The notes beneath the pieces are model-generated. The model had not been told where the DNA came from and made no database searches. It was given only the letters and a program-made list of their open reading frames with translations. A stretch of DNA of 46,868 bases, from the NCBI RefSeq assembly GCF_004010195.1, contig NC_057751.1, positions 18,477,185-18,524,052 on the forward strand. Direction: 5' to 3'. Of the stretch, positions 481-24,457 are shown piece by piece (position 1 is the stretch's first letter; every line of letters starts with the position of its first letter). The position numbers and the translations under genes are program-made. This DNA is from Chiloscyllium plagiosum (taxonomy: Eukaryota).

Positions 481-536
481 TTATGAAACAACACTCCCTT
501 TCACAAGAGAAACTTTGTCAGTGATTTATAATAGGA

Positions 537-661
537 AAAAGTGAGGATTGCAGATTCTGGAGATCAGAGTCGAGAATGGGGAACTGGAAAAGCACAGCAT
601 ATCAGGCAGAATCCGAAGAGCAGGAGAATCGACGTTTCATGCACAAGCGCTTCATCAGGAT
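537..661. mobile_element. Penelope-derived pseudo-LTR fragment (family A)
   Basis: aaagtgaggattgcagattctggagatcagag...gaatcgacgtttc...cttcatcagga, homologous to the left part of 4746-4972. Confidence 0.7.
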
Positions 662-2133: not shown

Positions 2134-3035
2134 TTAATTTAGTGGCGATTTTGATCTTGTCCCGTGGAAAATGTGGTCTATCAACATGTACTACTCGCTA
2201 CCTGGTGGCTATGGCAATGGCGGATTTTCTATTCATTATTACAGAGGTCATACTGTGGCGGGTCACTTATTTTTATTTCCCATCGTCTTTACTTCTCATT
2301 ACACCTGTGTGCAGTGTTGTCCATGCTCTACGTCGGGCAACTGAGGAATGGTCAGTCTGGTTCACGGTTACTTTCACCTTTGATCGATTTGTCGCCATTT
2401 GTTGTCAGTGTCTAAGGGCAAAGTATTGCACTGAGAGAACTGCAGGTCGAGTTCTAGCAATAACTGGTGTTCTCTTCTGTTTAAAAAGCATACCGCACTA
2501 CTTTATACAGGAACCGGGATATATAATTGACAATGTGCCATGGCTCTGTTACGTAAAACCAAGCTATTATACTGATCACAGTTGGATATTCTTTAATTAT
2601 TTCAATATGGTTTCAACTCCATTGCTCCCATTTGTTTTAATTTTGTTGCTGAACGCTTTGACTATTAGACACATATTAGTAAGTAATCGCATCCGCAAGA
2701 GACTGAGAGGTCAGAATAACAAAGATAAACACAATGACGCAGAAATGGAGAGCAGGAGGAGGTCTGTGGTTTTACTATTCAGCATATCGATCAGCTTCAT
2801 TTTGCTATGGTTGGTGCATGTTATAGATTTCTTATATTATAGCACAACAGGAAAAAGTACAAGAGATTATAACAATACTGAATTCATATTACAAAGAGTT
2901 GGATTCATGTTACGCAGTTTGAGTTGTTGCACGAACACATTTATTTATGGAGCAACTCAGTCCAAATTCAGAATGCAGCTCAAGAGTGCAATACAATATC
3001 CCGTGAAAGCAGTGCTTCATCTCATTAAGAAATAG
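2134..3035 (+). CDS. GPR139-like class A GPCR, paralog A, coding exon 2 (rest of TM1 to C-terminus); exon 1 not found in window, presumably upstream
   Basis: Polypyrimidine acceptor ttctctctttcttttacag|TT at 2133/2134 (phase 1). Open frame to TAG 3035 with GPCR motifs: (V)NLVAILIL, YLVAMAMAD (TM2), SVWFTVTFTFDRFVAIC (TM3), LPFVLILLLN (TM5), FILLW (TM6), NTFIY (TM7 lacking the NPxxY proline, as in GPR139/GPR142). The ORF-track start at 2028 is intronic. Confidence 0.88.
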
Positions 3036-4745
3036 AACAATTGAAAGAAGCCTAGAGACATATTCTAGTGCTTTTAGTCTATTACTTTCAAACATGTCAC
3101 AAACTCTCAATTAAATGTATGACAAAGAGTTCTGCAAATCCATTAAAATATGATTGGCGACCTGATGATACTCATCGAACCTTTCTGTGAGAACTTCCAA
3201 AAACTCCAGTAATTTTGAAGATACAAATTTCATTTTGGAAATCCATGCCATGTCTTTCTGATCAATATGTCGTTTTTTATGTGACTACTGATTCTTTCCT
3301 CAATTAAAATTTCTGTAAGTTTCTGAAGTTTATTAAATTATCCGGCCTGTAACTTATGATCTCACATTTACATTTTTTCTTGAACAAGGCAGCTGAAATA
3401 TTCCACTCTTTTGACACATCTCCCATATCTGTGGAATATCAAAAGTTCTGTGGCGTAATCCTTTCAGTCTACTTACGTTTATTCAAAATCCTTGAATGAT
3501 TGTTTCCTGAAACAAATGTGTTGTCAATTTTGCGCATATTTTTCTGTCCAACACTTCCTTCTCATCAAATTTTATCCATTCATGATAAATTGTTTCCTCC
3601 AGTTACGAGGGCTTAGTTAGCATCTCTGTCTTTGATAAGTAGTCGTGCAACAGTTCACATAGCATGAAAACGAATGGTGACATTCTTAAAAAGCAAACGT
3701 TTCTTTTCAAATCAGACAAGCACTGAATCACAGAAAAAGATAACTCTAGTTACACGCTGACCATTACAAATCTCCCTTTAAGGATAGCTGTATGCTTTTA
3801 CTGAAGTGTAAAACCATCCTTAACTGAAATCCAGCAATGCTAATCCAATCTTCTAATTGCAACTGAAAGTTTAATTTGATCCTCATGGCAGCTTCCATAC
3901 GAATTGAAATGAATCAAATGCTAAATGTAACGGCTAAAGCGAATCAAACAACAAACTTATTTGTAATTTTATCCAATATCCAAAACATAAAAACTCAGTC
4001 AACATCTTCCTGGCCCTCAACTTAACGTTTATGTTTATTCAATTGGTAATTCTAAATCTATGTGAAATGTAATGTTAACTGTGAGCAGAACTCAATTCCT
4101 AATTATTCCCCTTAAACTAGTTATTTCATTGCGCATGCATTTTGGAAGTCTAATCTGTAATTGATTATGAAACGTTAATATTTACTCTAGCCTTCACTAA
4201 ATGTGATTCATCCCTCAAGCGATCGGCCTGCAAGTCTGACTATGAACAGCAAAATTAGATTTCAGTGCAATGTACACAGACGAGATATTGAGACACTGTC
4301 ATTCAGAATAAATATGATATTTTCTCTCATCTGCCTGTCAGTTATTTGATAATGACGAGGCGAATGTGTGGTGGCTGGTAGCGACTGTGGGGATAGAGCT
4401 GGAAAAAATATGCATTGTCTGGATTTCACTTCTGTAGATGAGATCACATTGCACAGACTGCACCCTGCTCCACTCACTGCAACCCCACGTTCCGGGTTGT
4501 TTCACTTTCTCAAGGAGTGACAGGATTTTGCATGCATTGCAACATGGACTCCTTCCCATGTGAAGCAACTGAAATGCACACCATGTATATGGAACAGTGA
4601 TGAAGATGGAATGGAGTGACGGGTTAAATGTAAAATAGAATAGCTGAGGTGTTTTGAAGGTGATTGAGAAGCTTTTTAGACAAGCAACAGAGTTAGTTCT
4701 AGATTTGGCTTGAATGCCCGAGAGACGTTTGATCACGCATTATGT

Positions 4746-4972
4746 TTAGAAAGTGAGGTCTGCAGATGCTGGAGATCAGAGCTGAAAATGTGTTGCTGGA
4801 AAAGCGCAGCAGGTCAGGCAGCATCCAGGGAACAGGAGAGTCGACGTTTCAGGCATAAGCCCTTCTTCAGGGCTTATGCTTTCCTGAAGAAGGGCTTATG
4901 CCCGAAACGTCGATTCTCCTGTTCCCTGGATGCTGCCTGACCTGCTGCGCTTTTCCAGCAACACATTTTCAG
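4746..4972. mobile_element. Young palindromic Penelope-derived element (family A): inverted pseudo-LTR arms and a 12-bp TSD
   Basis: Arms about 4780-4871 and 4883-4973 are near-perfect reverse complements. Flanked by the direct repeat cacgcattatgt (4734-4745, 4973-4984). Confidence 0.8.
4882..4913 (+). ncRNA. Minimal hammerhead-ribozyme motif (Penelope type); mirror copy on the minus strand at 4841-4872
   Basis: UC-CUGAAGA-A-GGGC(UUAU)GCCC-GAAA-CGUC-GA: catalytic boxes, 4-bp stem II, palindromic ACGU stem III, very short stem I. Confidence 0.6.
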
Positions 4973-5179
4973 CACGCATTATGTGTCCAGACTACAGCAA
5001 ATATACTTGCAATGTGAGATGGAAGAGTGAAGATTTAACGGTTCCCCTTTTCCCACTCCAGTCATGTGGTCCTGCCTGAAGGACTTTGTCTGAAGGCAGA
5101 AGTTCACTTGTCATTTCTATTCTTATGGAATAAAGCAGAACAGACGATAACTTTGTGACTACCTCAATGAATTCGAATA

Positions 5180-6055
5180 AGAAATGACCTTCCCTGCATA
5201 GAGCCATATTGCCTATCACTAATAAGTTTTGTTTCCAAATGGGAGTATATCCTATCCCTCAATATCTTCTTCAGCAGCTTCCCTACCACTGCGTGAGGCT
5301 CAAGGGTTTACATTGCCTCGATTATCCCTGGTACACTTCTTAAACAGGTGGAACACTTGAGCAACCTTCCAGTCCTCGGGGACATCACACGTGTTCAATG
5401 ATGCTGCAACACACTCTGTTACGGCCTCAACCCTGTTCTCTCTGATTTCCATCAACAACTTGAAATAGTTTCTATCCAGGCCTGGAGACTTGTCCATCTT
5501 AATACCTTTTAGAACACCAACCATCTCCTTCCTCCTTAAGCCGACTTATTAAATTAATCAAACATCTATCCCTAATCTCAACATCTGCCATGTCCCACTC
5601 CTCGGCGAATACTGATGCAAAAGTATTCGTTTCGAATCTCACCAATTTTCTCTGACTTCACAGATAAGTTTCCTTCTTTGTCCTTGAGTGGGCAATGCTT
5701 TCACTACTTACCATCTTTATGCTTATGTATGAATAAAATGCTTTGCAATTTTCTTTAAACCTGTTTGCTAATGTTATTTCAGGATCCCTTTTAGGCATCT
5801 TCATTCCTCATTTCAAATTGGTCCAACATTCCTTTATTCTTCCAAAGCCTAGTCACTGTTCAGTCGCCTAGACTGTTTCCTTTTGCCTCTTGGCTAGTTT
5901 CAGAATTTAACCTGTCATCCATGGTTCCCTTACCTTACCATTTGTATTCCTCATTTTCACAGAAACGTATCTCTCCTATTCTCAAAGTAACTTCTCTTTA
6001 AAAGCCTGCACCATATCACGTGAGGATTTACCTTCTAACCGCTGCTCCCAATACT
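5180..6055 (-). mobile_element. CR1 LINE ORF2 fragment, degraded
   Basis: Translation KSPGLD...VPEDWKVAQVFHLFKK...GN is the typical CR1 pre-RT region. Confidence 0.8.
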
Positions 6056-6641
6056 GGAGACACGGATGGATGAATTGACCCATACAGCCACATTCCAGGT
6101 GTGATAGCAATTCCTCGGGAAGGAGTTATCTCCTGAAGGAGTTCAGCGCTGTCAGTTTGCTAATCTGCGATCGGGTGTGCAATAGACTCCTGCCTTCAGT
6201 TGGACAGGAGTAATTGTATTTATTGATCATTCATTTTGTTGTCAAACGCGACATTTCAAGAACTGTTGTTATTGGTTAAGTGTCAGGGCTATTCATATGG
6301 CTCTTCCACTTCTCCTGTCATTCAAAGATTTCAAGTAAAGAATTAATTCCTCTGTTTAACATGACATTTGTTCATTTGTTTGTGCCTGGACAAAGTCAGA
6401 GTGGGCATCAGGGGAATGTGAAATGGAGTCACGTTCTAATACACCTGATGAGCTGAAAAAGTGATAAGGCCTCCAAGCCAGTGTCTCAGCAGGTCATCCC
6501 CTCGATACAGTGACCGCCTGATGCAGCCACTCGCTGACATGAATTCTCTGAAATGAGTCTCACTTTGAATGAAAGAATGAAGAAGTGGTGATTCACAGTC
6601 TCATTGTCTATCACTGTGTGCATCCCTCTTGTGTTTAATAT

Positions 6642-7125
6642 GATGTGGAGGAGCCAGGTTTGGACTGGATTGGTCCAGGTTAATAATCACAACACCAGAT
6701 TATAGTCCATCAGGTTTATCTGGAAGCTCAGTAGTTTTCGAGTACTGCTCCTTCATCCCCTAAAGATTGTTCGAGAATGTGCCTTAATAGAAGTTCTGGC
6801 ATTTACATCTTAATGAACTGAAGCATGCAACCCGTTGAAAAGATGAAAGACTCGGCACAAAGCTAGATTTAGAAAAACTCAGCCGGCCAGGCAGCATCCA
6901 AGGAACAGAAAAATCGACGTTTCGGGCTAAAGCAATCTTTCAGCTCTAATTTGCAGTACTCATTTTTTTCCTGACCGACCTGGATTTGTACAATACATCA
7001 TTTCAGTTCCATGAAACTCTGTATTTTTCATATCTACTTGATGATGGAGCAGTGCTCCAAAAGCTAGTGCTTCAAAATTAACCTGCTTCACAATAATTTT
7101 GTGTTGTGTAACTTTTAACATTGTT
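6642..7125. mobile_element. Penelope-derived element (family B) with inverted termini and a nested family A fragment (about 6871-6972)
   Basis: 6642-6757 (ttggactgg...acaccagattatagtcc...gctccttcatc) is inverted relative to 7037-7125 (tgatgatggagcagtgctccaaaagctagtgc...). Nested piece ggcagcatccaaggaacag...cgacgtttcggg. Confidence 0.6.
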
Positions 7126-7314
7126 TACTGTGAAACAATGCCCTCCTCCTTCTGGCTGACAAGACCTACTGCACAAGTAAATAATATATTTTCGGCAGAG
7201 AGCATGAAAAGCAGGGAACTCTCATTGATCAACCAGTCCTCCAGTGGGTTCTTCATCAATGCCTAACTTCATTGATGAGCCACTCCCCGGGGAATGCGGC
7301 AACACCCATCAAAC

Positions 7315-7599
7315 TTTTTGCAAGGTTGTGAAGGTTTGTAGCTCAGGTTGAGGTTTAGGGTGTAGGTTTGCTCGCTGAGCTGTAGGTTTGATATCCAGAC
7401 GTTTCATTACCTGACGAGGTAACATCATCAGTGGCGACCTGCAAGTGAAGCGAAGCTGTTGTTTCCTGCTTTCTATTTATATCTTTTTATGAAAGATATC
7501 TTATTAAAGATATAAATGGAAAGCAGGAGATAACAGCTGAATATCAAACGTCTGGATATCAAACCTACAGTTCAGCGAGTAAACCTACACCCTAAACCC
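7315..7599. mobile_element. Palindromic Penelope-derived element (family C)
   Basis: ggtttagggtgtaggtttgctcgctgagctgtaggtttgatatccagacgttt is mirrored by aaacgtctggatatcaaacctacagttcagcgagtaaacctacaccctaaacc. Inner arms cagctg/ctgctttctatttatatc are also inverted. Confidence 0.7.
7395..7434 (-). ncRNA. Minimal hammerhead-ribozyme motif (family C)
   Basis: Minus strand CCA-CUGAUGA-U-GUUACCU(CGUC)AGGUAAU-GAAA-CGUC-UGG: stem I CCA/UGG, 7-bp stem II, ACGU stem III, GUC cleavage triplet. Confidence 0.7.
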
Positions 7600-8454
7600 A
7601 TAAAAATGGGTCATAATAGGCCATTAAGGATTCATGATGGGACTCAAAATAACGGGTAATAAATGAAATCGCAATGGCCAAATAACTCAACATTTCCCAT
7701 TCCAACTTTTTTTTGTCATGAGAACTATACTTAGCTCCTCTTGCAAACATTGAATGTTTTGCCCCGACTGCTTTCTATTGCTCAGAAGTCAACAGGCTCC
7801 TGCACTCTCTCTTTGGAGACATTTCCCCTCATTTCATTCCGCCCCCATATTCTTCCACTATGATCCACCAGTTCTGCACTTTCCCCTCCTGGTCATCAGG
7901 AACACCCTTCCTGCATTTACGTTTAGAACAAGTTCCATCAAACGCATGATACATTATCATTAAGGTATTTACCTGTTGGCAATATGAAAACAGCAAGAAA
8001 ACTCGGAAAGGTTAAATTAACAAATGTATTGGGTTAATAGATAAATCTGCGTAAAAGGATGTGACAGCAATTTTCTAACTATTGTCTGAGGTTAGTCTGA
8101 GTCACTGTATAAAGTACAGTAATGGTGCAGGAACTGAGAAGCTGCAGCACAAAACTCACTTCCTGCAGCTTATATGGGCAGATGCAGAGACGGTATCAGC
8201 ATGGAGTCCAACCGCCAACATTTGGAATAATACACATGCAATGAATCTAACTTGCAACATAAAAACCAGCAGAGATTTCCAAACACTGTTTCCCCTTTAC
8301 TGACTCGAATACGGTGTTTCAGTCTCACAATGCTTATATCTTACACATTATGGAATATAAGCTAATGGTCAGCGTCTACTCTGTCAGAAACCCGTGAGTA
8401 ACAGCCTCATATATTGAAACTGCCCGTGTGTATCTGGTGCAGGTTAGATTCATC

Positions 8455-8457
<3 letters not shown>

Positions 8458-8530
<73 letters not shown>

Positions 8531-8566
8531 GGAGAGAGGGAGGGAGAGAGAGAGAAAGAGAGAAAG
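8458..8566. repeat. (GT)~33 microsatellite followed by a GA-rich tract
   Basis: Directly visible. Confidence 0.97.
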
Positions 8567-9444
8567 AATTGGAAAATACAATGCATAGAATATTTAAAAT
8601 ACTTCATAATACCGAAGAAAGGGGTGAGTTTCAGTGCTCAGAGAATCAGACAGGGATTTGGGTGAAAAGGGGACTGACAGTGGAGCTGAGAGGTGGCGGA
8701 CCTGGGAGTAATTGGAAGCCAGGCTTCAGAATGGAGCAGCGTGTGACAGAGGGGCTCAGGTCAGAAATCCTGTTGTTCTGGGCGTGGTACAGGAATGTCT
8801 GGTGATAGCAGAACTGCAAATGGTAGGGGAGTACGGAGCTAGAAAAGTGTTGCAAATGCAAGCAGGGCTCTCAGCGAAGTGGATTTACAGATTGAAAATG
8901 CAGCGTGGACGAAGATAAGTAGGATTATTCAGCTATTTTATTAAGCTGCAGGGGAGAATGTAAGGAGAGGGAGTCTAGTTAAAGGGACGTTTTGAGTAGC
9001 AGAGGGAAGTGTGCAATCTTAGAAAGTTAGTTCCCTTGAATTTGCATCGCTAAGATCTCTCATACAGATGCAATGTTTCACACAGATTTTCTTGGTACAA
9101 GTTTGGGCTAATAAGGAAAGGACGTAAAGAAAATCACACCATTAATCACAAAATGAAAAAAAATATTGAGTCAAGAATTCAGACTCAGAAATGTACAGTT
9201 GGGAGACGTTATATTTCAAATCTGATCAGATTTTTCATGCTATTTCAATGAGACAAACATTGCTCTGTAGCTGACCGAGATTTAGACATTTTCCACTTAC
9301 TGACCGGCATAGCAAAAACATTCCGTGTTTTTGCACTCCCTTTGTCTAAATCCATGCATGTAACGTAGGCAGCAGACGTCAGTCCTAAAGTTTTCTTTTC
9401 ATCAATTCATAATTACACAGAGGCAGTTACTACACTATGATATC

Positions 9445-9790
9445 ATTTTAAGTCTGAATTCATGTGTAGGTCAGACCAAATAACAATGGCAGATTTCCTT
9501 CCACAAAGGACAACAGTGAATCACATGGGTTGTCATCCAACAATTGGTGATGGACTCGTAGCCATCATTAGACTCTAAATTCCTAGATTTTCATCTCGTT
9601 GAGTTCAAATCGCACTATGTGTAAAGGTAGGCCTTGAATCGTTGATGAAAAATGTGTTGCTAGAAAAGCACAGCAGGTCAGGCAGCATCCAAGGAGCAGG
9701 AGAATCGATGTTTCAGGCATAAGCCCTTCTCCAGGACCTGGGTCACAGGAACAACCATTAAGTGATATGACCACTAACACGTCATGTCCC
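9445..9790 (-). mobile_element. Degraded Deu-domain (SacSINE1-like) SINE interrupted by a family A Penelope fragment (about 9642-9737)
   Basis: ggcagatttccttccacaaaggacaacagtgaa...catcattagac...ttcaaat resembles this SINE on the minus strand. Insert aatgtgttgctagaaaagcacagcaggtcaggcagcatcc...aagcccttc. Confidence 0.55.
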
Positions 9791-10359
9791 ATTTACTAAC
9801 AAAACATAAATCGAAATTATCACTCTCCAAAGCGCACTGCAGAAGAGAGATTGCTGCCAGGCCATGGCAGTACAGATCATTGGACATCTGTCCAAATACT
9901 AAATAAATAACGTATCACATTTAAATAACTCCTGGGCATCTTTCCACAAAGTCATCTGATATCCGATGAAAGACAAATTAAATCAGAGGTCTCGTTAGTT
10001 TTTCTGACTTGCCAGTTTCATAAAGTTCACCAGAAGTATACTTCTCAACACAGGAATGCCTAATTTCCTGCTCAGTGTTCAAAAATATACATAAAACGGC
10101 ATGGAACATTGGTTGGGACAAGCGCCCAAGTATTGTTCAGAATGCCTTGACAGAAAGTTAAACACGGGAGATTGATGAGGATGGTGCACAAGACCCCAGA
10201 GTTATTGATATGAAGAGAAGTTTCAGAGACTGGACTAGTTTCTGTTTCTCGGTGTAGCAGAAGACCGGGGTATCGCCCACTGCTTAAAGAAATAACGGGA
10301 GTGAGATAGTAACTGGAATTATTAAAATATTTTCGGTTAAAATACCTACGTTTTTGATA

Positions 10360-10665
10360 GGGGGCATGGTGGCACAGTGGCAGAGTGATTAGCACTACTG
10401 CCTCACAGCGCCAGAGACCGGGGTTCAATTCCTGCCTCAGGCAACTGTCTGTGTGGAGTTTGCACATTCTCCCCGTGTCTGCGTTGGTTTCCTCCTGCAG
10501 TCCAAAGATGTGCAGGTTAGGTGAATTGGCCATGCTAAATTGCCTGTAGTGTTAGGTGAAGGCGTAAATGTAGGGGAATGGGTCTGGGTGGGTTGCTCTT
10601 CGGAGGGTTGGTGTAGACTTGTTGGGCTGAAGGGCCTTTTTCCACACTGTAAGTAATCTAATCTA
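10360..10665 (+). mobile_element. HE1-type tRNA-derived V-SINE
   Basis: Box A/B (tggcacagtgg, ggttcaattcc), V-domain tgtggagtttgcacattctccccgtgtctgcg, tail gggcctttttccacactgtaagtaatctaatc. Confidence 0.9.
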
Positions 10666-10879
10666 TTAAAATATAGTTTTTCAGCGATCAAGATAGTGAT
10701 CAAGGAATCTGTGAATAATCTGCAGATAATTTGCAAATCACACAAAGTAGTGGCGGGATTGTGGTTGGAAAAGTGGGCATGATGTGTTCATTAATGTTGA
10801 CAGAAGTATCTAGATGGGACAATTGATAAAAGCATTTAGGAAGCAGAAGGTGAAACGAAAGCGGGAGAATATCTTAATT

Positions 10880-11036
10880 CCTGAACAGGCAGCATCCGAG
10901 AGCAAGGGAGTTGGCGTTTCGGGCAGCAGCCCGAAACATTGACTCTCCTGCTCCTCTGATGCTGCCTGAATGGCTGTGCTTTTCCCAAACTGCACTTTTC
11001 AACTCTGATCTCCAGCTTCTGCTGTCCTCACTTTCT
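10880..11036. mobile_element. Family A Penelope-derived palindrome with internal deletion
   Basis: caggcagcatccgag...gtttcgggc / gcccgaaac...gatgctgcctg inverted arms; ends in ctcactttc. Confidence 0.7.
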
Positions 11037-11265
11037 AGTAATATCTTAGTTCCTGCAGAATTCATTGCCGTACCAATGTGCACCCATACGACGAGCAGAC
11101 GTTTTCTAATGCTGCAGCATGGGTTCACTGCAGAGTCAGAGAATGAGTGGAAAGAATCGAAAAATCACTGAGGCTCAATCGTATCAACACCAGCAAGGAG
11201 AGTGGCAGAACGAATGATCAGGCAAACACTATGGTTAGCAATCAATAGCTATATGGGAAACTTAC

Positions 11266-11404
11266 CAGGGACGGCAACAAAAGCCAGGATGGGAAGGAAA
11301 TGTACTGGTCAGGAAAGTAAAACTTTAGAACCAGTATTCTGATACAGGCTCCGAAGGAAGAATGTAATGAGACCAGAATTACCCCTATTCAGTTGATAGT
11401 ACAT
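11266..11404 (-). pseudogene. Orphan, disabled GPR139-like exon 1
   Basis: Minus strand reads MYYQLNRGNSGLITFFLRSLYQNTGSKVLLS*PVHFLPILAFVAVP followed by G|GTAAG. The phase-1 donor and FLPILAFVAVP match exon 1 of paralog B (FYPLLAAVGVL G|GTAAG). In-frame TGA at 11311-11309. No intact minus-strand exon 2 in the window. Confidence 0.6.
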
Positions 11405-11999
11405 TCCAAACACTTTTTCTCAGATTCGGATCTCCACTCTCCCTTTCTCTGGAGCTGCTAAAGGTGATGCTCTCGCTGTCACTCTGCGATAACACGCTGA
11501 AACCCATCTCTTAAGGAAGAGGGAAACCCTCCAGTGACACAATTAGGATCCACGGAGGCTGACATTGATCACTTACAAAAGGGGATTTCGGTCACAGCAA
11601 ACATTGCATTTCAGACCTGTATTTACATCAAAAAGCATAAAAACTCCTACTCCTGAAATACATAAAATTTCACAGCATGCAAGCAGACCGAATGGCTTAC
11701 CTGCTGGTCAACAGTTATGCCTGTATGGCAGAAAGTTCTTATCAATATATTACTAAATGAGCTTTTTATCTCTCCCTCTGTATCTTCCTTTCTCTCCCTC
11801 ACCTGTGCATGAATGTTTCTGCTGTCTCTGAAAATGTGTTACCATCATTTGATGGCAACTAAATGTCAGCTAAACCACCTCACATTAATTGGAATTATTT
11901 CTCTCTCATTGAAAACAGCAACGTACGTGTCAATTTCTTCAAAGTCAGACCTGAGTTTCATTGTAACTGTACTCGTATAATGTAGCATTTACCAGATAT

Positions 12000-12340
12000 A
12001 CGGTGATTCAATGTTCCGCACTGATACATCACAGCGCCAGAGATACGGGTTCTGAACCAGCCTTGGGTAACTATCTGCGTGGAGCTTGCACGTTTCCCCG
12101 TGTCTTTGTGGGTTACCTTTGGGTCCTCCGGTTCCATCCCTCAATCCAAAGAAGTGCAAGTTAGGTGACTTAGCCGTGCTAATTTGTCCAAAGTGTTCAG
12201 GGATAAGTAGGCTAGTTGTATTGGTCTGGGCTACATGTACAGTGACAGGGTAGGGGAAATGGGTGTGGAGGGTTTACTCTTCGATTGGTTGGTGTGGATT
12301 TGCTGGACGCGTGCCGCAAACTGTCAGGAATTCTATGTTC
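12000..12340 (+). mobile_element. Older HE1/V-SINE copy
   Basis: cacagcgccagagatacgggttc...gtggagcttgcacgtttccccgtgtc...ttggtgtgga. Confidence 0.75.
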
Positions 12341-12769
12341 AGAAGTTCACAGTCGATACAAGAAATGATTGGCACAAGGAGAGATAGCAATTGGGTTTAG
12401 AGAGAGAGAGAGAGAGAGATCTTCTCTCCTGATTCTTTCAGAGATCGATAACTGAAACATTGCTGTATCAAGCCTCCACCAATAGCACACCTGTCTCGAA
12501 AATTAAATGTGTTGCTTCTCTCTCTGGAAGAAACTTCCCCTTTCGTGAAGGGAATTCAGTTGTACTGAAGATAATGCAAACTTGATAGTTCACTCTGCTT
12601 AGATTCGCAATTTGGATTCTGCCATGGTCATTGATAGATAATATTCACAGGAGGTTGACAATTTACTCGTAAAAATGAGTATCAGTTAATATCGTCCCTT
12701 TGTTCAGCAAAAAAATGCTATTTCAACCAAAGTTAAAATTAATTGCGATGGTCTCACGAATGCACCAGC

Positions 12770-13634: not shown

Positions 13635-13890
13635 ATTAAGGACTGAGATGGCAAGAAATATCATGACCGAGGGAATTGGTAGCCTGTGGAATTCTCTGCC
13701 AGAAAAGTTTAGAATAAGACTGCGTATGTCTTGGAGAAGGCTGAAATACGCTTCTTATGGTCTTGGAGATCGTTCGGTAAGAGGGAGAACGTGCGAACAT
13801 GGGACAGAGTTGATCGTTGAGCCAGAAACATATGGAATGGCAGAGCAGGTTTGAAGGTCTGAGGCGCTTGCGCCTATTCCTATGTTCAAT
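13635..13890 (+). mobile_element. CR1 3' end, degraded
   Basis: RTEMARNIMTEGIGSLWNSLPEK, then 3' UTR gaatggcagagcagg...cctattcctatgttc. Confidence 0.65.
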
Positions 13891-14029
13891 GTATTTGTTT
13901 CTGGTAATTGGGTATCCCAATTGTTTATCGAGTAATTAGTCTGAGTTTATTCGAAACTATCTTTGATATTGTTTTTAATCTTGTCACTAAAAAAGGTTCG
14001 AATCAATCTCAGCAAATATAAGAATCAAG

Positions 14030-14450
14030 CATACTTATGGCACTGTCCACTTACATTTTGTCAACAGGAATATAATTCTGTGAACAATTGACTGAATGCA
14101 GTAGGGCTACGGATGGATGGTTGCATTTTTCTATATTATCATAGTCCTCCATGGGTGAATGCATTTCTCTTTATTTCAGTATTCAATACCCCACTGTGTA
14201 TCCTCAGACTGTGACCCTTGGTTTGTACTCCTTGATCATTGGTAACATCCTTCCTGCATTTACCTGATTTGTTCCGATCAGAATTTTGTAACTTTCTATG
14301 AGATCACCCCTTCATTCGTATAAAGTGCAATGAATATGGTCGTCAGTGAATTCTTCATTCATTTGTCCTGCCATCGCAGGGGTCACGCTGCTAAACCTTT
14401 GTTGATCTCCACCTATCCTCCACAAATCACTCCTCAGGTAAGGGTAACAT
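14030..14450 (-). mobile_element. CR1 3' fragment, degraded
   Basis: gaatgcatttctc...ctcagactgtgaccc...tctatgagatcacccc, reverse-strand CR1 motifs. Confidence 0.55.
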
Positions 14451-14453
14451 AAT

Positions 14454-14682
14454 GTGGGCGGCACGGTGGCACAGTGGCACAGTGGTTAGCTCTGCTGCCT
14501 CGCAGCGCCAGAGACCCGGGTTCAATTCCCGACTCAGGCGACTGACTGTGTGGAGTTTGCATGTTCTCCCCGTGTCTGCGTGGGTTTCCTCCAGGTGCTC
14601 CGGTTTCCTCCCACAGTCACAAAGATGTGCAGGTTAGGTGAATTGGCCATACTAAATTGCCCGTAAATTGGCCATACTAAAT
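14454..14682 (+). mobile_element. HE1 SINE, 3'-truncated, with a short internal duplication (aattggccatactaaatt twice)
   Basis: Close match to 15439-15746 up to taaattgcccgta. Confidence 0.9.
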
Positions 14683-14774
14683 TCCACCTCCTGATCCTGC
14701 CTGGCTGTGTTCTTCCAGCCTCCTGCCTTTCTATTTGGAATGCAGCATCTGCAGTTTTTTTTGTTTCTGATCGA

Positions 14775-15780
14775 GAACTAGTTGGCAGAGTTCAGTGCTT
14801 GGATCCCAGCTGTTCACTATGCGTTAACAATTTGGACGAAGGAATTGAATGCAGCCTTTCCAAATTTGCCAATGATACTAAGCTGGGTGGCAGGGCCTCC
14901 AGTGAGGAGGATGGCAAGAGGCTGCAGGGTGACTTTGGCAGGCTGTTCAAGCGGGCAAATACTTGGCAGATGTAATATAATGTGGATAAATGTGAGGTTA
15001 TGCACTTTGGTTGCATGAAGAGGAAGGCTGATTTACTAGTTGAATGGTGGCAGTTTAGGAAAAGGTGAGGTGCAACCAGACCTGGGTGTCATGGTGAAAT
15101 AATCGCTGAAGGTTAGCATGTGGGTGAAGCAGACAGTGAGGAAAGGTAACGACATGCTGGCCCTCCTAGCAAGAGGGTCTGAGTATTGGAGTAGGGATGT
15201 TTTACTGAAGTTATACAGAGCTTTGGTGAGGCCATACCTTGAGTATTGTGTGCAGTTCTGGTCTCCTAATCTGAGGAAAAACATTCTTGCTGTTGAGGGA
15301 GCAAGTGAATGTTCACCAGACTTAGTTGCAGGATGACAGGACTGACAGATGAACAAAGACTGGATCAATTGAGCCTGTCCTCACTGGAATTTGTAAGAAT
15401 GAGGTCTATCTGATAGAAACATATATAATGGTGGAACCCGGCACGGTGGCACAGTGGTTAGCACTGTTGCCTCACAGCACCGGAGACCCGGGTTCAATTC
15501 CCGCCTCAGGCGACTGACTGTGTGGAGTTTGCACGTTCTCCCCGTGGCTGCGTGGCTTTCCTCCGGGTGCTCCGGTTTCCTCCCACAACACCAAAGATGT
15601 GCAGGGTCAGGTGAATTGGCCATACTAAATTGCCTGTAGTGTTAGGTAAGGGGTAAATGTAGGGGTATGGGTGGGTTTCGCTTCGGCGGGTCGGTGTGGA
15701 CTTGTTGGGCCGAAGGGCCTGTTTCCACACCTTAATCTAATCTAATAATTCTGATGGACCTAGACAGGCTGGATGTAGAA
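14775..15780 (+). mobile_element. CR1 RT/C-terminal fragment interrupted by an HE1 SINE
   Basis: ccaaatttgccaatgatactaagctggg (KFA.DTKL) and LLKLYRALVRPYLEYCVQFWSP. Confidence 0.85.
15439..15746 (+). mobile_element. HE1 SINE
   Basis: tRNA head, V-domain and taatc tail all present. Confidence 0.92.
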
Positions 15781-16030
15781 CATTAAAGTACAGCACAGAA
15801 CAGGCCCTTAGGCCCATGATGTTGTGCCGAGACTTTATCCTAATGTAAAATATAGTAACTTAACCGATGCAGCCTTCGACTCATTGCTGTCCATGTGCAT
15901 GTCCAGCAGTCGCTTAAATGTCGCCAATGACTTTGTTTCCATCACTTCAGCTGGCAACGCATTCCATGCATTCGCAACTCTCTGCGTAAAGAACCTACCT
16001 CTGACGTCTCCTTTATACCTTCCTCGACAT
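15778..16030 (-). mobile_element. CR1 3' tail
   Basis: gtacagcacagaacaggccctt...ccatgatgttgtgccga is the reverse complement of the CR1 3' end seen at 44780-44842. Confidence 0.75.
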
Positions 16031-16698
16031 CCCCGCTCTGTACTTTAATCCTCTTACGATGAAGGTCAACGTACCTTCATCACAACCCGCTGCTCCTATA
16101 ATGCTGACTTCAGCCCCAGATGTAAGAGGGGCATCCTGGTCTTCGTGCAGATCATTATTTCCAAAGCTATGACCGCTCAGATAATAATACGCCTTCCTGT
16201 TTTTTCATCTAAAACCTCACATTGAACCATATTATACCTTCCCCGCTGCGATGCATTCCCCCTCCTCCTCACACAAACCGGACAGAAGTATCTCTGTATC
16301 ATTCTCATAACTTTGTATTGTCTGAAAATTGGTGAAATGGTTTTGAGATCTTGCCTCTAATCATGAACGATTAATGTGAACAGTTTAGTTTCTAACACTT
16401 GCCCCGGGAAATCCGGCACTGATCCAGGCGTAATGTCACTCAAAACCAACTGCAACACAGAAAATGATTGGATCATTCCCACTCTTTGTTCCCTATGTGC
16501 CAGTCCATTCTCTACCCATGTCAGTGTACAACACGGGTTTCAATGTTAAATCCCAGCCATTTCTTGGGAACTTATCGAATACCTTCTCAAAGAAATAGCT
16601 TTCCGTTAGCATCTCTAATAGTTGCATACTTAAAATAAAGCTCCTGTGGATTGCCGTTTTGAAAATTCGTGCTGATTCTGTTGGATTCTTTAAATTTT

Positions 16699-16795
16699 AG
16701 AACATAGAACATAGAACATAGAAGAATACAGCGCAGTACAGGCCCTTGGGCCCTCGATGTTGCGCCGAACCAAGCCCACCTAAACTACACTAACC
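16699..16795 (-). mobile_element. 97-bp 5'-truncated CR1 tail flanked by a 74/88-bp direct duplication
   Basis: (agaacat)n tail. Flanks 16625-16698 and 16796-16883 are identical except for a 14-bp indel. Confidence 0.85.
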
Positions 16796-18462
16796 CATAC
16801 TTAAAATAAAGCTCCTGTGGATGTGCCAAGTGTGATTGCCGTTTTGAAAATTCGTGCTGATTCTGTTGGATTCTTTAAATTTTCAAGGTGTTCTTCTCTT
16901 AAAACATTTATCGTGGACTCTAGCCTGTTCCCTCATGACTGATATCATGAGGGATATGATATCAGGCTGTCCCCCAGCCTAACAGATCGATAATTCCCTG
17001 TTTTCAGCCTATCTTCTTTAAAAAAAGGAGTGTTTACTTGACCTCACCTCCAATATTTGGGAAACTTTCCAGAGCTTACGTCTTCTAATATGACCACCAG
17101 CACGGGATTTCCAGGACCTTAACAACTCATAAGGGGATGCAGATTAATGTGCTGACAATAATAAAAAAAAGGATAACTTGATGTTACTTGAATTGTAGAA
17201 GAACTCCATAAACAATGCGGAATAATTTCATAATGCATATTTTTACTTATGGTGTGCTCATCAAGTAAGTACACGAGTCTGAGGGGGGAATTCACTGGGA
17301 CTCATTAGACAGTTGGGACTTGTATCGATTGAATGTTGGGACCTATCCCAACTGAATAAATCTTGTCTCACACGAATTTAGAATATCGTCTTTGTGCACT
17401 AATGCTGGTGGAGGACGTTGTCCCCAAATGCCAGGAGTACTGAGGATAACAATTAGTGACCTCTGCTGGGCAGACTGAGTTAGGATTATTGTCTTACGAT
17501 ACTATCATTCAGGCATCCACTCTCATTGCATTTCCCAGTTGCACCATCACCCTCCCCAGTATTCAGGGCTAAATACCAGTTTGTTATGGAATAGACCGAA
17601 CCACACAAGATATGACAAGGAGATAGCCTGAACTAGAACTTCGACTTGAAGACACGTGCCAGGCCCTGGACTGATTTAATTGGTCCCTCACTCGTATTTA
17701 AGCAAAATACACTTCTAAACTATGTTATGATTATTCTTATCTTTCTAAATTATAGTGAGTCCAGGGCTAAACTGCTCAATCTTTCATTGAAAGGCAAGTT
17801 TTCAACTCGACAGTCAATTGTGTAACTCTTCCTCGGATTGTCTCGAACAAACAAGATGAACGCTGATGGGAATGTTGGAGACCATAATGTTTGCACAGTC
17901 TCATTAAGTTATATTAGTAACGAATGTTGCAGTCGTGTGTAGCTTCAAATTCACAAATGGATTCAGTGTTCGTGCTCACAAGGAGTGATTTGGAGGTAAT
18001 AATTAGGAAAGTGATTAAAACACTTGAAAACGGTGATCTCAGCCTCGCGAGCATTATTTTGGGGAAGACCGGTAATTATCCAGGACACCCGTCATTTTGA
18101 TAATTTACAAAGTGACAGAACAGACAGAGATGCTTGTAAGGCTCAAATTTGATCCTGGCCACTTGAAGTCAGGCGCTTTTCTATTGAATACTGACACTGA
18201 GGGAGAATTTTTAATTCAGTATCAGAAATACGACATCTCTGAGGATTGATTCCTGAGTGGGTCCACATGATCCATCACTTTATTTACATCAGAGTAAAAA
18301 TCATGATGTAGTTTTTGTTTATGTAAGCAATCGTAATGGTCAGGGGAATACTAGTGATAATAGAGTCAATAAAGAGTAGGTCTGTTTCAAGTATATCATT
18401 TCATTTACGCGGAAGGTTGGCATTGTAGGCGGGAACAGCTCCCCTTTTTTTCCCACACGGAC

Positions 18463-18532
18463 ATGGGAAGACCACTTATCCGTCAAGCAGAGGACATTTT
18501 CTACCCTCTTCTGGCAGCGGTTGGTGTTCTTG
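18463..18532 (+). CDS. GPR139-like paralog B, coding exon 1 (MGRPLIRQAEDIFYPLLAAVGVL)
   Basis: ATG 18463, 23 codons plus 1 nt, then donor G|GTAAG at 18532/18533. The phase-1 end joins in frame to the acceptor at 23559, giving a continuous TM1 (FYPLLAAVGVLVNVVAIAIL). Confidence 0.85.
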
Positions 18533-18829
18533 GTAAGCCCTGATTTCAGCAATGAATCGTATAAATTTGACATTGTGTCTGGAAGGATTCCTGCTTGTAT
18601 TCATAAACACGTTGTACATTTTTCTTTCTCTCCATTGAAAGCAGTTGCATGACACTTCCCATAGCTGTTGATTATAGAAAGAGTGCATATTTTCTTATTA
18701 GCAACCATCAATGCTTGCTTTCTCAATGTTTTATTCTGTATTACAATTTTGTGAACATGAATTCTCCAGTTTAAAACTCTGCATCAGATTCCAATGTCTA
18801 TTATAAACATTATTTTTGGAACAGATCTG

Positions 18830-19060
18830 TCTTGTCAGTGATGGAGTTAATGAATGGATGTTGATGCCGTGCCAATGAAGTAGGCTTCTTCACCCTGCAT
18901 AGTAAAATTTGTTGAGTGTTGTGGAACTGCACTCGTCCAGGCAAGTGTGAAGTATTACATCACACTCCTGGCTTATTTTTTGTTGATGGCAGACATAGTT
19001 TGTGGAGTCAGGAGTCTGTTATTCAGTGATGGATTCCAAATTTCTGATGTTCACTTTTCG
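18830..19060 (-). mobile_element. LINE (CR1/L2-clade) ORF2 C-terminal remnant in the paralog B intron
   Basis: Reverse strand resembles LLTPQ...KxxVRSVMEY..LAW motif. Confidence 0.5.
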
Positions 19061-19854
19061 TACTGGACTTTGACTTAAGAACAGAAGAAATAAGCCACTC
19101 AGCTACTTGATAAGAACATGGCTGATCCTTTTGTGGACTCAGTTCCCCTTACCCGCCCATGCACCAGAACTCGGAATTCCTGTACCCTTCAAAAGTCTAA
19201 CTTAATTTGCTTAAGAAAACAATTAACGATGTGGCCTCAATTGCCTCACTCGACATGGCAATTCCACAGGTCGAAATAATACGTGTCGTCCAGTTCAGTG
19301 TCTGACCACTGACCACCCGCAGGCCATTGATACTGGAGTAATTCAGAGAAATAACTGGGATAATGAGCTAATATGTGGATTCTCTCATACTGGACCTGGT
19401 ATTTGGCTGAGACATATGTGGTGACGATGTGTTTTCTTCTCACCTTTCATCATTGCTCAAAAAGTCATTCCTTTTGGAGAGTGTAATGACCAAAGAGAAC
19501 TCCATGATTAACTGCATTATTCTAAAGGGATACCTGATGTAATACCGTTCTCTCACCCTTTGTGTTTATCTGAGCTGCAGAATTATAGCAGGCAAAAGGG
19601 ATTCCCTCAGTTTTCAAAAATCGGCGACATGGAAGGGTTGGGGGAAAGGGCCTGTTTCCACATTGTAAATGTCTATGACTCAATGCCTGTATGAAATGTA
19701 TCGATAGATCAAGTGTCGCAAATTTGCGACGTTGACATTCATCAATAAACATTTGAAAGGCCAAAGTGTCATGAATACACCCGCTTGAGATACTTGAGGT
19801 TCGTAGGATAACGGAACTTTGTGCACAAATGATTCTGCAGGAAATGACAGCATA

Positions 19855-22800
19855 AATAATAGGAGCAACAATTGGACATCTGCCCCATTAAGCCTGCGGT
19901 GCCATTCAATCAGATCATGGTTCTTTTTTGTTCGTGGACACAGCTCCACTTACCTGCAAGCTCACCATCGCTATTCATTCAGTTACTGTTCAAACGTCCA
20001 TCTGTCTTTGCCATAAAAACATTCAAAAATGTGCCCTCAACTGTTTCACTAGGCAGGGAATTCCACAGATTCACAATCCTTTGGAGAAGAAATGTCTTCT
20101 CACTTTATTCCCCAATCTGCTTGTCCGTATTTTGAATGACTTCTCCCACTGAAAGCAACCTCCCTACCTGCTTCTATATTGTCTGTTCCCTTCCCAATAT
20201 TACATGCTTCTGTAAGATCCGACCTCATTATTTTAAATTCCAATGATTATAGATCAAGCTACTCACTTTCTGCACATAAGCCAACTCTGGAATCTTCTGA
20301 ATGAAAGTCTTCTGCACTCTTCCTGTGCCATTATGCCCTTTCTCAATTAAGGTGACCATACCTGTGCACAGTACTCCAGTTGTAGCCTCACCAGCAATCT
20401 GTACAGCTACAGCATAACCTGTTCGCTTTTAAACACCATCTTTGTAGTAATGAAGAAAAATATTCAATTTCCCTTCTTAAATTACTTGCTGTTACTGAAA
20501 ACCACCATTTTGTGATTCATGCATAGGCATGCATAGGTCCTTCAGCATAGCACTATGCTGCAATTAGTCATTTTACTCAGAAATAAATAAAGTATTTTGC
20601 CACTTTCCCGAACAAAGCGGGTGAGCTCACGTGTACCAATATTGCACTCCATTGGCGAGACAATTGCCCACTCAATCAGCATTGCCAAAACCCTCTCCTG
20701 TCTTCCACTGTCCTCTGCACATTTCTTCTACTATTCATCTTAGTGTCACCTGCGAACTTTCACACACTAGGATTGGCCCTGAAATCCCAATCATTCACGG
20801 AAATTGTGAATAATTGCGATCCAACACTGGTCCCTGAGAGAAAGCACCAGCCACTGATCTTTAACTAGGAAACACCCATTTATACCGACTCATTGCTTTC
20901 TGTTAGTTCACCAAACTTCTAACTATGCTAATCCAGTAACACACTGACTCTTGATCTTATGCAGAAGCTTTTTGTGTGGCACCTGTTGAAATCCTTCTGG
21001 ATCACCATATCCACCAGTTCCACCACACCCATAATATCTTCAAAGAATAACTGTAAAGCAGTTAAACATCACTTAACTTTCATGAACTCATGCTGCTTCT
21101 GTCAGATGGGGCAATTACGGTCCAGATGTTCGTCTATTCTTTTCCTCAATGAATGATTCGGACGTTTTCCTTGTGACAGATGTTAAGCTAACGGGACGAT
21201 GCTTTTCCCCCTTTGTCTGCCTCTTTTGTTAAACAGTGGACTCACATTTTCTATTTTACAAACTGTCAGAATCGGCCTAGAGTCCAACAGATTATTACTA
21301 AATTACTAGAAGCGCATTTGTTATTTCGCCTACTATCTCTTCTAATACCCGAGATGCATTCTGTTGGGGTGAGGAGACTTGTCTATCTTTAGCTTGACGA
21401 ACACTTCTGGTTTAGTGATAATGATCTTTTCTGCATCCTAACCTGCCATCACATCCTTATCATCAATTATTACCATTTTGTTGTGTCTTCAGCTGTGAAC
21501 ACCGACAGAAAACAACTGTTCAACCTATCGGCCATTTCTGCATTTCCCATTTTTACATCCCCACTTCTATCCTCTGAACGACAAACGCTTACCTTAGCCA
21601 GTTGCTTTTGTGTCATGTAATTGTGGGAAGTTCTGCTCACATGCTTTCGATATTCTGTGCGATTTTACTCTCGTACAATATCTGACCTTTCTTTATGCCT
21701 TTGTTTTTGTTAATTTCTGTTGACTTTTGAAGATTTACCAATCGTATAGTTTCTCAGTAATCTTAGTCACTTTGTGTGCATTAACTTTCCATTTGATACC
21801 TTCATTCATTTCTTTAGTTTTCCATATTTAATTACCGCTTTTCTGACAGTCCTTACTTTCTTTAGTATGTACTTTGTTGAGCACTGTGAAAAATTGCTTT
21901 GGAAGTCCTCCATTGTTCCTCAGTTGTCCTACCATATAGCCTTTGCTCCCATTCTGCCTTAATCAATTCCTCCCTCATCCCATTGTTATCTTCTTTGTTT
22001 AAGCACAAGGAATTGGTATTGGATTTCACCTTCTCAGCCTTCACCTGTATTTTATTTAAATTCGCTTGTGAATGCTTCTTCTGAGAGGATCCCTAACTAT
22101 GACATCGTTAATTATTCCTGCGTCATTACACATGGCCAGATCTAGGATACCTTCCTTCCTCATAGGTTCGCATCCATACTGTTCGATGAAACGAGCACGG
22201 ATGCATTCTATTAAATCTTCATAGAATACAGTCAATATGTAGATTCAAATGTCCAATGGTAATTGCCGTACCATTTTTATATTGATCAGTTATTTCTTTG
22301 TTATTGTTCGTCCGTTATGATGCTATATTTTGGTGGTCCATAGATTAAAAATCGCAAGGGATAACAGTCACTGACAAGCTAATCCACTGGCAAAGTTTCT
22401 GCCATTTTCTCCATAGAAATTGTACTGCGCTGATAGCATCCTTAAATATCAGAACTACACAACTTCTGTTTCATTCCCCTCTGTTCTTCCGAATAGTCTG
22501 ATACCTTTGAATGTTTGACTCCCAGTCATGGCCACCCTACAACCATGTCTCTGCAATGGCCACAGAATTATGCATATTCACGATGATTTATATCGTCAAC
22601 TCGTTTCCCTTGTTTAGAATGCTGTGGTGCTGCTGGATTTGATATGGCTGCGATTCCCTGAGTCATGGTCAGAACGCAACTGAGAGCACCAGTTGGATAT
22701 TGGGATAACCTTACAGGACTCCTGTTCCACCCTGCCTCGCCAAATGCTTGCATTCGCTGGGCACCCAATCACTATCCTCCTGCATCCTTTTAAACCGAGG

Positions 22801-23210
22801 ATAACTACTACCTTGTACGTGCCATTCACATAAATCCCGTCCTCCCAGGTGCTCCTCGATGCCTCCAGACCTCGCCTAAGCTCCCTAACCAGGCACTTGG
22901 GGTGTAGGCATGCAAAGAACGACCTGCACACCAGTTGATCTTCGATGCAATCAGAACGGAAAAGCTCCTAAATGTCACAGCTGGAGCATACTGCTTGAAG
23001 GAGCTAGCCTTTTGTTAACCTAAAAAATTACTCTCGAAAAATAATGAATCGTGGTATCAATGAAACATACTAACAGTTAATATTAAGTCTGGTCATTTGA
23101 GCAGGTGATTTATCTGGAATAAGAAAATGAAAGATATCTACTCAAAACTCCAAAGGCCAGTAAATTACTGACTTTCCACTCTGGATCCTCACGCTTCCTC
23201 GCACCAGAAG
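19855..23210 (-). mobile_element. Long, internally deleted CR1 (ORF1 remnant, endonuclease, RT, 3' tail), antisense in the paralog B intron
   Basis: 3' tail at about 19860. EWEQRL.GRTTEEQWRTSK and RT motifs. ORF1-like RGRVEQES..VIPISN at about 22700-22930. Confidence 0.75.
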
Positions 23211-23558
23211 CTGTTCAGGCTTGTCATTCTCTAATCGCTCCCTTGTTGTTGCCATATAGAAACTGTTGTTGTGATATCACGCAGGATCAAAGGAATTTAA
23301 ATTACTCAAGGAATATAAGGCAGGGTGGGAACTGGGAATGGTTAAACATTACTGAAGAAGAATTTGCTGGACTAGAAAAACAGTTTCTTCTCAATAGTCT
23401 GTATAAGATGAAGATCCAAAATATATGCTTAACTCTGTTCAGGTACTGCTCTCAATATAAGAAGTGAAACTGGCATTCTTAATGCAGAATCAATCAATTA
23501 CTTTGCGATTTCTTGAGCTGATCAGGAATAAAAACAAAAGTTTCTTTCTCTGTTGCAG

Positions 23559-24457
23559 TTAATGTTGTGGCTATTGCGATCTTATGCCAGGGAAGGTGTG
23601 GTCTGTCCAAGTGCATAACCAGCTACCTTGTCGGTATGGCAGTGGCAGATCTTCTCGTCGTCATCTCAGACCCCGTGTTGAACTGGATAGGTACCATTTA
23701 TTTCCCACTCTCATTCCTGAACATCACCACCGTTTGCTCTTTAGTAATATTTTTGCTATATGCGACCCGAGTGATATCTGTTTGGCTCACTGTGGCTTTC
23801 ACATTAGATCGATTTGTAGCCATATGTTGGGAGAAATTGAAAACAAAATATTGCACTGGAAAAACAGCAGCTACGATCATTGGAGCAATATGTGTTCTGG
23901 GCTGTTTGGAGGCTATCCCTTGGTACTTTGTATCTGAACCACAATACACGATTGATAATGTTCCATGGAAGTGTGTTTTTAAACTGAGTTTCTATACATC
24001 GTCGAATTGGATTGCCTTTGACATGTTCCACCTAATTTTAACACCCAGTATCCCGTTCTTTCTTATATTTCTGCTCAACGTTCTGACAGTCAGACGAATT
24101 TTAGTGGCAAGTAGAGTCCGCTCTGGATTTTCGAACAGGAAGATCGGAGAAAACCAGAAAGATCCAGAGATGGAGAGCAGAAAGAAGTCAATCATTTTGC
24201 TCTTCAGTATATCCAGTAGTTTCATACTGTTGTGGGCAACGCAGGTTCAGTTCTGCATTTATCGCAGAATTACAAAAACACATTCGTACTCCCACTCAAA
24301 TGACCTCTATGCTATCGAATCTGTGGCGACTATGCTGCAACTCCTTAGTACGTGCACTAACACATGCATTTATGTACTAACTCAGTCTAAATTCCGAGAG
24401 CAGTTGACGAATATGGTGAAATGCCCCCTTAATATAATCACTAAGTTAATGAAATAA
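23559..24457 (+). CDS. GPR139-like paralog B, coding exon 2; spliced product 322 aa
   Basis: Acceptor tttctttctctgttgcag|TT. Intact frame to TAA 24457. Motifs GRCGLSKC, YLVGMAVAD, SVWLTVAFTLDRFVAIC, IDNVPWKC, DPEMESRKKSIILL, FILLW, NTCIY. Colinear with the 2134-3035 exon. Confidence 0.9.

Follow-up and report, generated by a model that had tools for sequence, protein, structure and literature searches.

A large elasmobranch family of GPR139-related receptors, likely undescribed so far, with traits of a possible chemosensory repertoire

We analysed a stretch of 46,868 nucleotides of the shark Chiloscyllium plagiosum (assembly GCF_004010195.1, contig NC_057751.1, positions 18,477,185 to 18,524,052; the window), which holds two genes for class A G protein-coupled receptors (GPCRs), here called A and B, each with two exons and a protein of 322 amino acids. 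About 1,400 or more copies of their family exist in this genome, and the family is a very large elasmobranch receptor family, so far undescribed in the literature searched, that is not GPR139 itself. It has several traits of a chemosensory repertoire, being large, clustered, shaped by birth and death, accompanied by pseudogenes and endowed with a variable pocket on a conserved face. We give a probability of about one half to the reading that genes A and B belong to a birth-and-death repertoire of sensors, likely chemosensory ones.

The second exons of both genes are free of internal stops, open at a phase-1 AG acceptor within transmembrane helix 1 (TM1) and match Pfam 7tm_1 with 82.6 bits (A) and 77.1 bits (B), at a cut-off of 30.5. 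Over exon 2 the two proteins share 146 of 298 residues (49%), with 46 of 115 identical in the extracellular half versus 95 of 164 in the intracellular half. The initial annotation of the window had described two intact paralogs with a common phase-1 intron in TM1, about half identical and diverging more in the extracellular half, and its account agrees with these results in the reading frames, the intron position and both identities; six-frame translation also placed every motif that it quoted where it had been reported.

Family size was assessed with exact degenerate protein-motif patterns over the whole genome of this species, with reversed patterns as controls. A genome-wide copy count had been proposed earlier as a check, and single motifs sufficed to show that the family is large: the DRFVAIC pattern matched 1,317 times (reversed control 0) and two SVWxTV patterns 521 and 1,399 times (controls 0 and 0), while CTNT[CF]IY gave 735 matches (control 4) and a pattern specific to one large subfamily 612 (control 0). 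The overlap between listed places (67/100) leads by capture–recapture to approximately 1,800-2,050 loci, a rough and probably low figure because the two motifs lie side by side and a single subfamily dominates the region. With gene A as query, 132 matches at 54% identity or more, a floor that leaves out gene B itself, were found, spread over 22 large and many small contigs. A sample of 40 of the first 100 listed DRFVAIC matches was studied further; it comes from contigs C4-C8 and one subfamily supplies 31 of the 40, so that it does not stand for the whole genome. All 40 fit the hidden Markov model (HMM) of the family and 18 have an intact exon 2 of at least 270 stop-free codons (95% interval 29-62%). 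The number of intact exon-2 copies in the genome is probably between several hundred and about a thousand. The assembly comprises 101,977 contigs, and uncollapsed alleles may have raised the count of the large subfamily, which has many of its exon-1 copies on small contigs. Among the 30 sequences closest to gene A such alleles are not evident, the highest pairwise nucleotide identity being 96.2%.

The variation among copies is concentrated on the outer side of the receptor. Residues are numbered by our own count from C3.25, R3.50, P5.50, W6.48 and Y7.53. The class A hallmarks (R3.50, the disulfide between C3.25 and extracellular loop (ECL) 2, W6.48 and Y7.53) are kept in 120-124 of 124 intact copies, and mean entropy in these copies is 2.14 bits in the extracellular half against 1.20 in the intracellular half (P 3e-15), which bears out the earlier proposal of a conserved signalling face with a variable pocket. 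The equivalents of the GPR139 ligand residues E3.32 and R6.51 (PMC12775434; papers are cited here by identifier) are hypervariable across the 124 copies. Genes A and B have R and L at 3.32, H and Q at 6.51 and V and T at 6.50, respectively, and P6.50 is kept in only 11 copies. With these pocket residues of GPR139 lost, the pocket gives no backing to the amino-acid or peptide ligands that the initial annotation had suggested. An acid, D or E, occupies position 3.37 in 112 of the 124; gene A has E there and gene B has V. In 20 amphibian proteins of the sister gene introduced below the gradient is reversed (0.34 bits extracellular, 0.60 intracellular), and at ten pocket positions all 20 carry the same residue. 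An AlphaFold2 model of gene B, built on a 44-row alignment, predicts seven transmembrane helices (7TM) with a predicted local distance difference test score of 84.7, and a fold search with this model returned peptide-type class A receptors at template modelling scores of about 0.7. We discarded that search as a pointer to GPR139, which ranked eighth and was not singled out.

Database searches returned 1,910 and 2,018 proteins at E<=0.001, and among the 120 best matches of each search those with a named source are all from sharks and rays and nearly all bear the automatic name 'probable GPR139'; the genera among the matches listed include Heptranchias, Heterodontus, Pristiophorus, Scyliorhinus, Rhincodon, Stegostoma, Chiloscyllium, Mobula, Rhinoraja, Leucoraja and others. 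The suggestion of an elasmobranch-wide repertoire evolving by birth and death is therefore upheld by the many copies, the broken state of 22 of the 40 sampled ones and the presence of members in both sharks and rays. Gene B groups with a 74% identical catshark counterpart at a support of 99. Beyond the family, an unfiltered HMMER search found a salamander protein (34%), a coelacanth protein (32%) and a silverside protein (33%), followed by amphioxus and protostome sequences. The salamander gene, whose best match in this shark genome is a family member (37%), is present as one cluster per species in 20 amphibian matches and one sturgeon match. This unnamed and apparently single-copy orphan GPCR (P0219, P0279-P0298), also automatically named GPR139, carries N and not D at 2.50 in the two sequences aligned.

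In the phylogenetic tree the shark and ray family is one clade (100/98) with the amphibian/sturgeon gene as its sister (100/99), and both are nested among fish and amphioxus relatives, with GPR139 and GPR142 outside. A joint clade of the family with GPR139/142 was rejected by the approximately unbiased (AU) test (p=0.0004), performed under LG+G4 on a careful tree of 30 rows that excludes the long rows P0189 and P0266; the tree of 69 rows is a quick one. Genuine GPR139 (L163) and GPR142 (L164) exist as separate genes in this shark, one copy found of each, and both have a phase-1 intron in TM1 at the position shared with the family. Three further GPR139/142-like orphan genes are present (L041, L042 and L043), two of them with clear bony-fish counterparts (45% and 63% identity) and L042 more divergent. 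The best sequence match of a full-length family member in the PDB is GPR139 (E 4e-14), which is also the nearest human relative; with exon 2 of gene A alone CXCR4 came first and GPR139 eleventh. The family does not belong to the OR, TAAR, V1R, V2R or T2R receptors, as Pfam at E<=0.01 gave only 7tm_1 and a sub-threshold Srx. Taken together, the phase-1 intron in TM1, N5.58 and the non-NPxxY TM7 point to a place within the wider GPR139/GPR142 clan. The earlier label 'GPR139-like' is thus sound as regards the clan, but these genes are not GPR139 paralogs in the strict sense.

Selection was studied with codon models on six subfamilies of 12, 9, 6, 8 (including gene A), 4 and 15 genes, with gene B's clade outside the set. 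The first five have omega values of 0.19-0.45 and no selected site, which indicates that their open reading frames are under selection. In gene A's clade omega is 0.35 in the outer and 0.26 in the inner half, with no selected sites, and on this ground positive selection was rejected as the source of the pocket difference between A and B. The large subfamily (15 genes analysed, at least 612 copies) behaves differently: omega is 1.08 outside and 0.42 inside, model M2a is favoured over M1a with 2dL=330 and omega2=9.1, and 16 of its 17 selected sites are extracellular. Its N-terminal exon is also positively selected (2dL=40, 3 sites, 20 copies). In all, selection in this subfamily falls on the N-terminus, ECL1, ECL2 and the TM6-ECL3-TM7 rim, where W, Y and R often replace one another, and null simulations gave 2dL of 0.8-9.2 in six of six runs. 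The site-wise dN/dS analysis proposed earlier hence has a divided outcome, with positive selection in one subfamily of six and purifying selection in five, gene A's clade among them. Gene conversion among copies of the large subfamily is possible, because identity among them is about 90% in the DNA close to the coding sequence and about 83% in the distal intron.

The large subfamily (L165-L181 and L222-L241, on G000:C8 and many small contigs) is also peculiar in structure. Its extended N-terminus opens with a run of 14-residue units, variable in number, and includes an aromatic-rich variable segment. In none of seven copies examined did exon 1 turn up within 8.5 kb of exon 2. The copies share at least 8 kb of flanking DNA at about 83% identity and are scattered along C8 in both orientations, an arrangement that scaffolding may partly explain. 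A minisatellite of about 65 bp and very variable length lies just upstream of exon 2 (L165:7220-7800; L177:1-4400).

For the promoters, 8 kb upstream of exon 2 was retrieved for 40 other loci and exon 1 with its donor was located in 32 of them, 26 by a strict filter and six by eye (two GC donors); with A, B and the neighbouring locus L037 the set comprises 35 promoters. A site resembling the O/E consensus (PMC3247239), allowing two mismatches between -170 and -50, is present in 30 of the 35 as opposed to 41 of 168 control windows (P 1e-11). With at most one mismatch the counts are 8/35 and 4/168, and exact sites number two and none. In most cases the site is near -110 from the ATG, with a TATA-like word about 20 bases further on, and TAAAT follows it in 22/35 promoters versus 47/168 controls. 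A palindromic form of the O/E consensus was found in 26/35 versus 41/168 (shuffle mean 6.2), and TGTTTGT is also enriched (8/35 versus 4/168). The V1R-type motifs (PMC3247230) are not enriched in these promoters, with CNTCTGG in 4/35 versus 6/168 and TCTGGR in 6/35 versus 17/168. The O/E-like element is a real and conserved feature of the family's promoters, and it may be bound by a factor of the EBF type.

Evidence of transcription comes from the large subfamily. On L165 (exon 2 at 8561-9460), reads of the single-cell polyA run X5 cover the 3.3 kb ahead of exon 2 at a depth per direction of about 0.2-5; this climbs to 9-15 within the exon and, for one of the directions, to 32 at its 3' end. 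This rise over exon 2 and its 3' end indicates that the large subfamily is transcribed in some tissue. Contigs of X7, X8 and X11, from three studies and with RNA status guessed, also peak over this exon; no splice joint was seen at L165, whose exon 1 lies outside the stretch. No RNA run was listed as holding exon 2 of gene B, and four runs on the gene B locus gave only paralog-level reads over exon 2 and none over exon 1.

We envisage that the family expanded in elasmobranchs from one GPR139/142-related gene, and that the copies would differ in the outside molecule they bind while sharing the intracellular face through which they signal. Expression would be expected in chemosensory neurons, olfactory or other, under EBF/homeodomain control and with few genes per cell; ligands with an amino group may pair with the conserved acid at 3.37, and the G protein engaged may be Gq/11, as it is for GPR139, or Go, the one of shark microvillous neurons. 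A bolder proposal, which we can only advance tentatively, is that sharks and rays independently invented from a GPR139-related orphan an olfactory repertoire of mammalian size, with hundreds to about a thousand intact genes and sparse, O/E-driven choice.

Several observations weigh against a chemosensory role. A strict O/E pattern occurs in 0 of 34 promoters, most of the O/E-like matches carry two mismatches, those of genes A and B do so without exception and are at background level, and promoters of paralogs are not independent of one another. The homeodomain word TAATGA is only weakly enriched (15/34 versus 22/89, P 0.03), and EBF factors act in B cells and in other neurons too. More than half of the sampled matches (22/40) are broken. 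Positive selection, confined to one of the six subfamilies, falls on loops and not on the deep pocket, as would fit large ligands or a host-pathogen race. As for expression, the RNA runs used are coded and carry no tissue label, and in the approximately 2% of run X5 that was read gene B had no read of at least 95% likeness and no cover of exon 1. Finally, catshark olfactory neurons are reported to be microvillous and dominated by V2R expression (PMC10116579), and the top 50 genes of a brain-plus-nose library include no GPCR (PMC11979771).

The main rival to the chemosensory reading is immune surveillance, in which receptors on leukocytes or barrier epithelia would sense microbial or damage-derived peptides or proteins in the manner of formyl-peptide or MRGPR receptors. 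The selected sites of the large subfamily, on ECL1, ECL2, the TM6-ECL3-TM7 rim and the N-terminus with their W/Y/R swaps, would suit such sensing, contigs over exon 2 of this subfamily appear in three contig sets from three studies (RNA status guessed), and EBF1 is a B-cell factor. We nonetheless consider this explanation rather unlikely, since five of the six subfamilies, gene A's included, show purifying selection only, the O/E-like site beside a TATA-like element matches the promoter layout of odorant receptors, and known immune GPCR families are far smaller than this one. Cartilaginous fishes have also been reported to lack MAS1 and related receptors (PMC8455134), which counts in favour of the immune role. 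A second alternative is that the copies receive signals of the animal itself or of conspecifics (peptide hormones, seminal or pheromonal peptides, individual recognition) in the gonad, brain or gut endocrine cells. The clan is peptide-receptor-like, with ESM Atlas neighbours named FMRFamide-receptor-like and fold matches to peptide receptors, GPR139 itself responds to L-Trp, L-Phe and ACTH/MSH-related peptides (PMC7318219), and gene B has a catshark counterpart at 74% identity with a support of 99. However, receptors for a fixed endogenous ligand are usually conserved, like the amphibian sister gene, and a family of some 1,400 or more copies that has also lost many genes is a poor fit to a small set of ligands, so that we regard this origin as improbable.

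It could also be argued that the numbers reflect mostly passive amplification by segmental duplication, with most copies redundant or decaying and the counts inflated by a fragmented assembly. The 22 broken matches among 40, the flank of at least 8 kb at about 83% identity shared by copies of the selected subfamily, its many exon-1 copies on small unplaced contigs, the failure to find exon 1 within 8.5 kb of exon 2 in seven of seven cases, and the 101,977 contigs all agree with this. It is nevertheless hard to reconcile with the omega values of five subfamilies, which are well below 1, and the strong positive selection at particular sites of the sixth, with an exon 1 and donor in 32 of 40 other loci, with the ceiling of 96.2% nucleotide identity among gene A's 30 nearest neighbours and with the large numbers of members in independent shark and ray genomes; we think it quite improbable as the main explanation.

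At the locus itself, the initial annotation had spoken of a tandem cluster, which does not describe it well: the two genes are not densely packed but one piece of a genome-wide family, and only one further family exon 2 was found in the 50-kb flanks on both sides of the window. This third exon is intact and on the same strand, about 17 kb beyond the window end (L037:7014-7897), with a candidate exon 1 at about L037:1800-1868. The pseudogenic relic that had been noticed is a fragment of a family member, between A and B and with one stop (Table 1), and a weak match at 35287-35349 (E 0.03-0.23) was taken as chance. The intron of gene A is about 4,960 bp long.

Table 1. Gene parts, relic and repeat copies in the window and its upstream flank (window positions unless a locus is named)
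Feature	Position	Strand	Basis or remark
Gene A exon 1	L031:7107-7173, ~2.9 kb upstream of window		relatives' N-terminus profile
Gene A phase-1 intron, 3' part, ending in polypyrimidine tract + AG	1..2133	+	
Gene A exon 2, intact, second half of TM1 to C-terminus and stop TAG	2134..3035	+	six-frame translation
TM7-helix 8 pseudogene relic of a family member, one in-frame stop	8049..8174	- (antisense to A/B)	HMM E 2e-8
Gene B putative proximal promoter, two weak 2-mismatch O/E-like sites	18235..18348	+	~-228 and ~-126 from ATG, each at background level
Gene B exon 1, ATG, 23 codons + one base, short N-terminus and first half of TM1, GT donor	18463..18532	+	relatives' N-terminus profile
Gene B phase-1 intron, 5,026 bp	18533..23558	+	
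Gene B exon 2, intact, stop TAA, predicted 7TM fold with beta-hairpin ECL2	23559..24457	+	six-frame translation, model
~315-bp SINE-like repeat copies	10368-10665, 14457-14666, 15439-15749, 29393-29707, 32126-32442, 43123-43461, 45081-45489		

The remaining DNA of the window is rich in repeats. Fragments of a reverse transcriptase of long interspersed nuclear elements (Pfam RVT_1, E 2e-26) and their degraded kin lie at 43536-44108 (+), 32493-33736 and 34413-34858, and the interspersed repeat of about 315 bp that resembles short interspersed nuclear elements (SINE-like in Table 1) has copies 81-93% alike, several with TAATC/AGATT repeats at the end. Palindromes like those of miniature inverted-repeat transposable elements occur at 4781-4973 (94% self-complementary) and 7352-7598 (64%), with shorter copies elsewhere in the window, together with a direct duplication of 133 bp (97%) at 29901-30168 and a GT/GA microsatellite at 8458-8567.

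Whatever its function, a family of some 1,400 or more copies that automatic naming has hidden as 'GPR139' contradicts the 'relative paucity' of GPCRs stated for cartilaginous fishes (PMC8455134). Known shark olfactory repertoires are tiny (OR 6-13, TAAR 3-5, V1R 2-4 and V2R 8-43; PMC10116579), and the family makes the paradox of a renowned sense of smell served by a few dozen genes directly testable. If it were an olfactory repertoire, it would be a further family of vertebrate odorant receptors and would overturn the view of a shark nose that relies on a few dozen V2Rs. The fixed pocket of the amphibian/sturgeon orphan set against the hypervariable pocket of the shark radiation also offers a natural experiment. 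No description of this expansion was found in the literature searched, in which subscription journals are largely not covered. Term searches of the main texts of PMC11979771, PMC8455134, 10.1101/2022.10.17.512540, PMC7677710, PMC10115646 and PMC12294341 gave no mention of it, which for PMC11979771 leaves out a supplement with tissue expression lists that may bear on both novelty and tissue; a term search of 24 supplements of PMC8455134, one file incomplete, gave only one plain GPR142 orthogroup line.

Among known systems, the closest in architecture are GPR139 and GPR142 (PDB 7VUG and 9M42), class A orphans activated by L-Trp and L-Phe, which share with the family N5.58, the non-NPxxY TM7 and the phase-1 intron in TM1. 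They differ in forming a separate clade (AU p=0.0004), in copy number, with one found of each in this genome and about 1,400 or more of the family, and in E3.32 and R6.51, which the family has not kept, P6.50 surviving in 11/124; the family has a cysteine pair between TM3 and ECL2 that shark GPR139 lacks. The amphibian/sturgeon 'probable GPR139' gene has in common with the family a DPEM-x-x-RR-x-S motif at the junction of intracellular loop 3 and TM6, but it is present as one cluster per species (21 matches) with an invariant pocket and P6.50 kept, whereas the shark family is multiplied and hypervariable. The next-nearest clades are the GPR139/142-like subtypes of fishes (GPR210A, GPR210B and an unnamed set; PMC6504862), represented in this genome by L041-L043, which probably match the GPR210-named subtypes; they are low-copy, and the main text of that paper, based on Ensembl genomes, does not contain the word 'shark'. 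The vertebrate chemoreceptor repertoires (OR, TAAR, V1R/ORA, V2R/OlfC and T2R) and FPR/MRGPR resemble the family in clustered birth and death, many pseudogenes, the short N-terminus of most subfamilies, a variable pocket and possibly the O/E-like promoter element, although there is no homology beyond class A and the shark coding region is split by one intron in TM1. Nematode Srw and molluscan Srw-like receptors are independent protostome expansions of chemoreceptors, thought to derive from peptide-type rhodopsin receptors (PMC3963977), and ESM Atlas neighbours of the shark family carry Srw.

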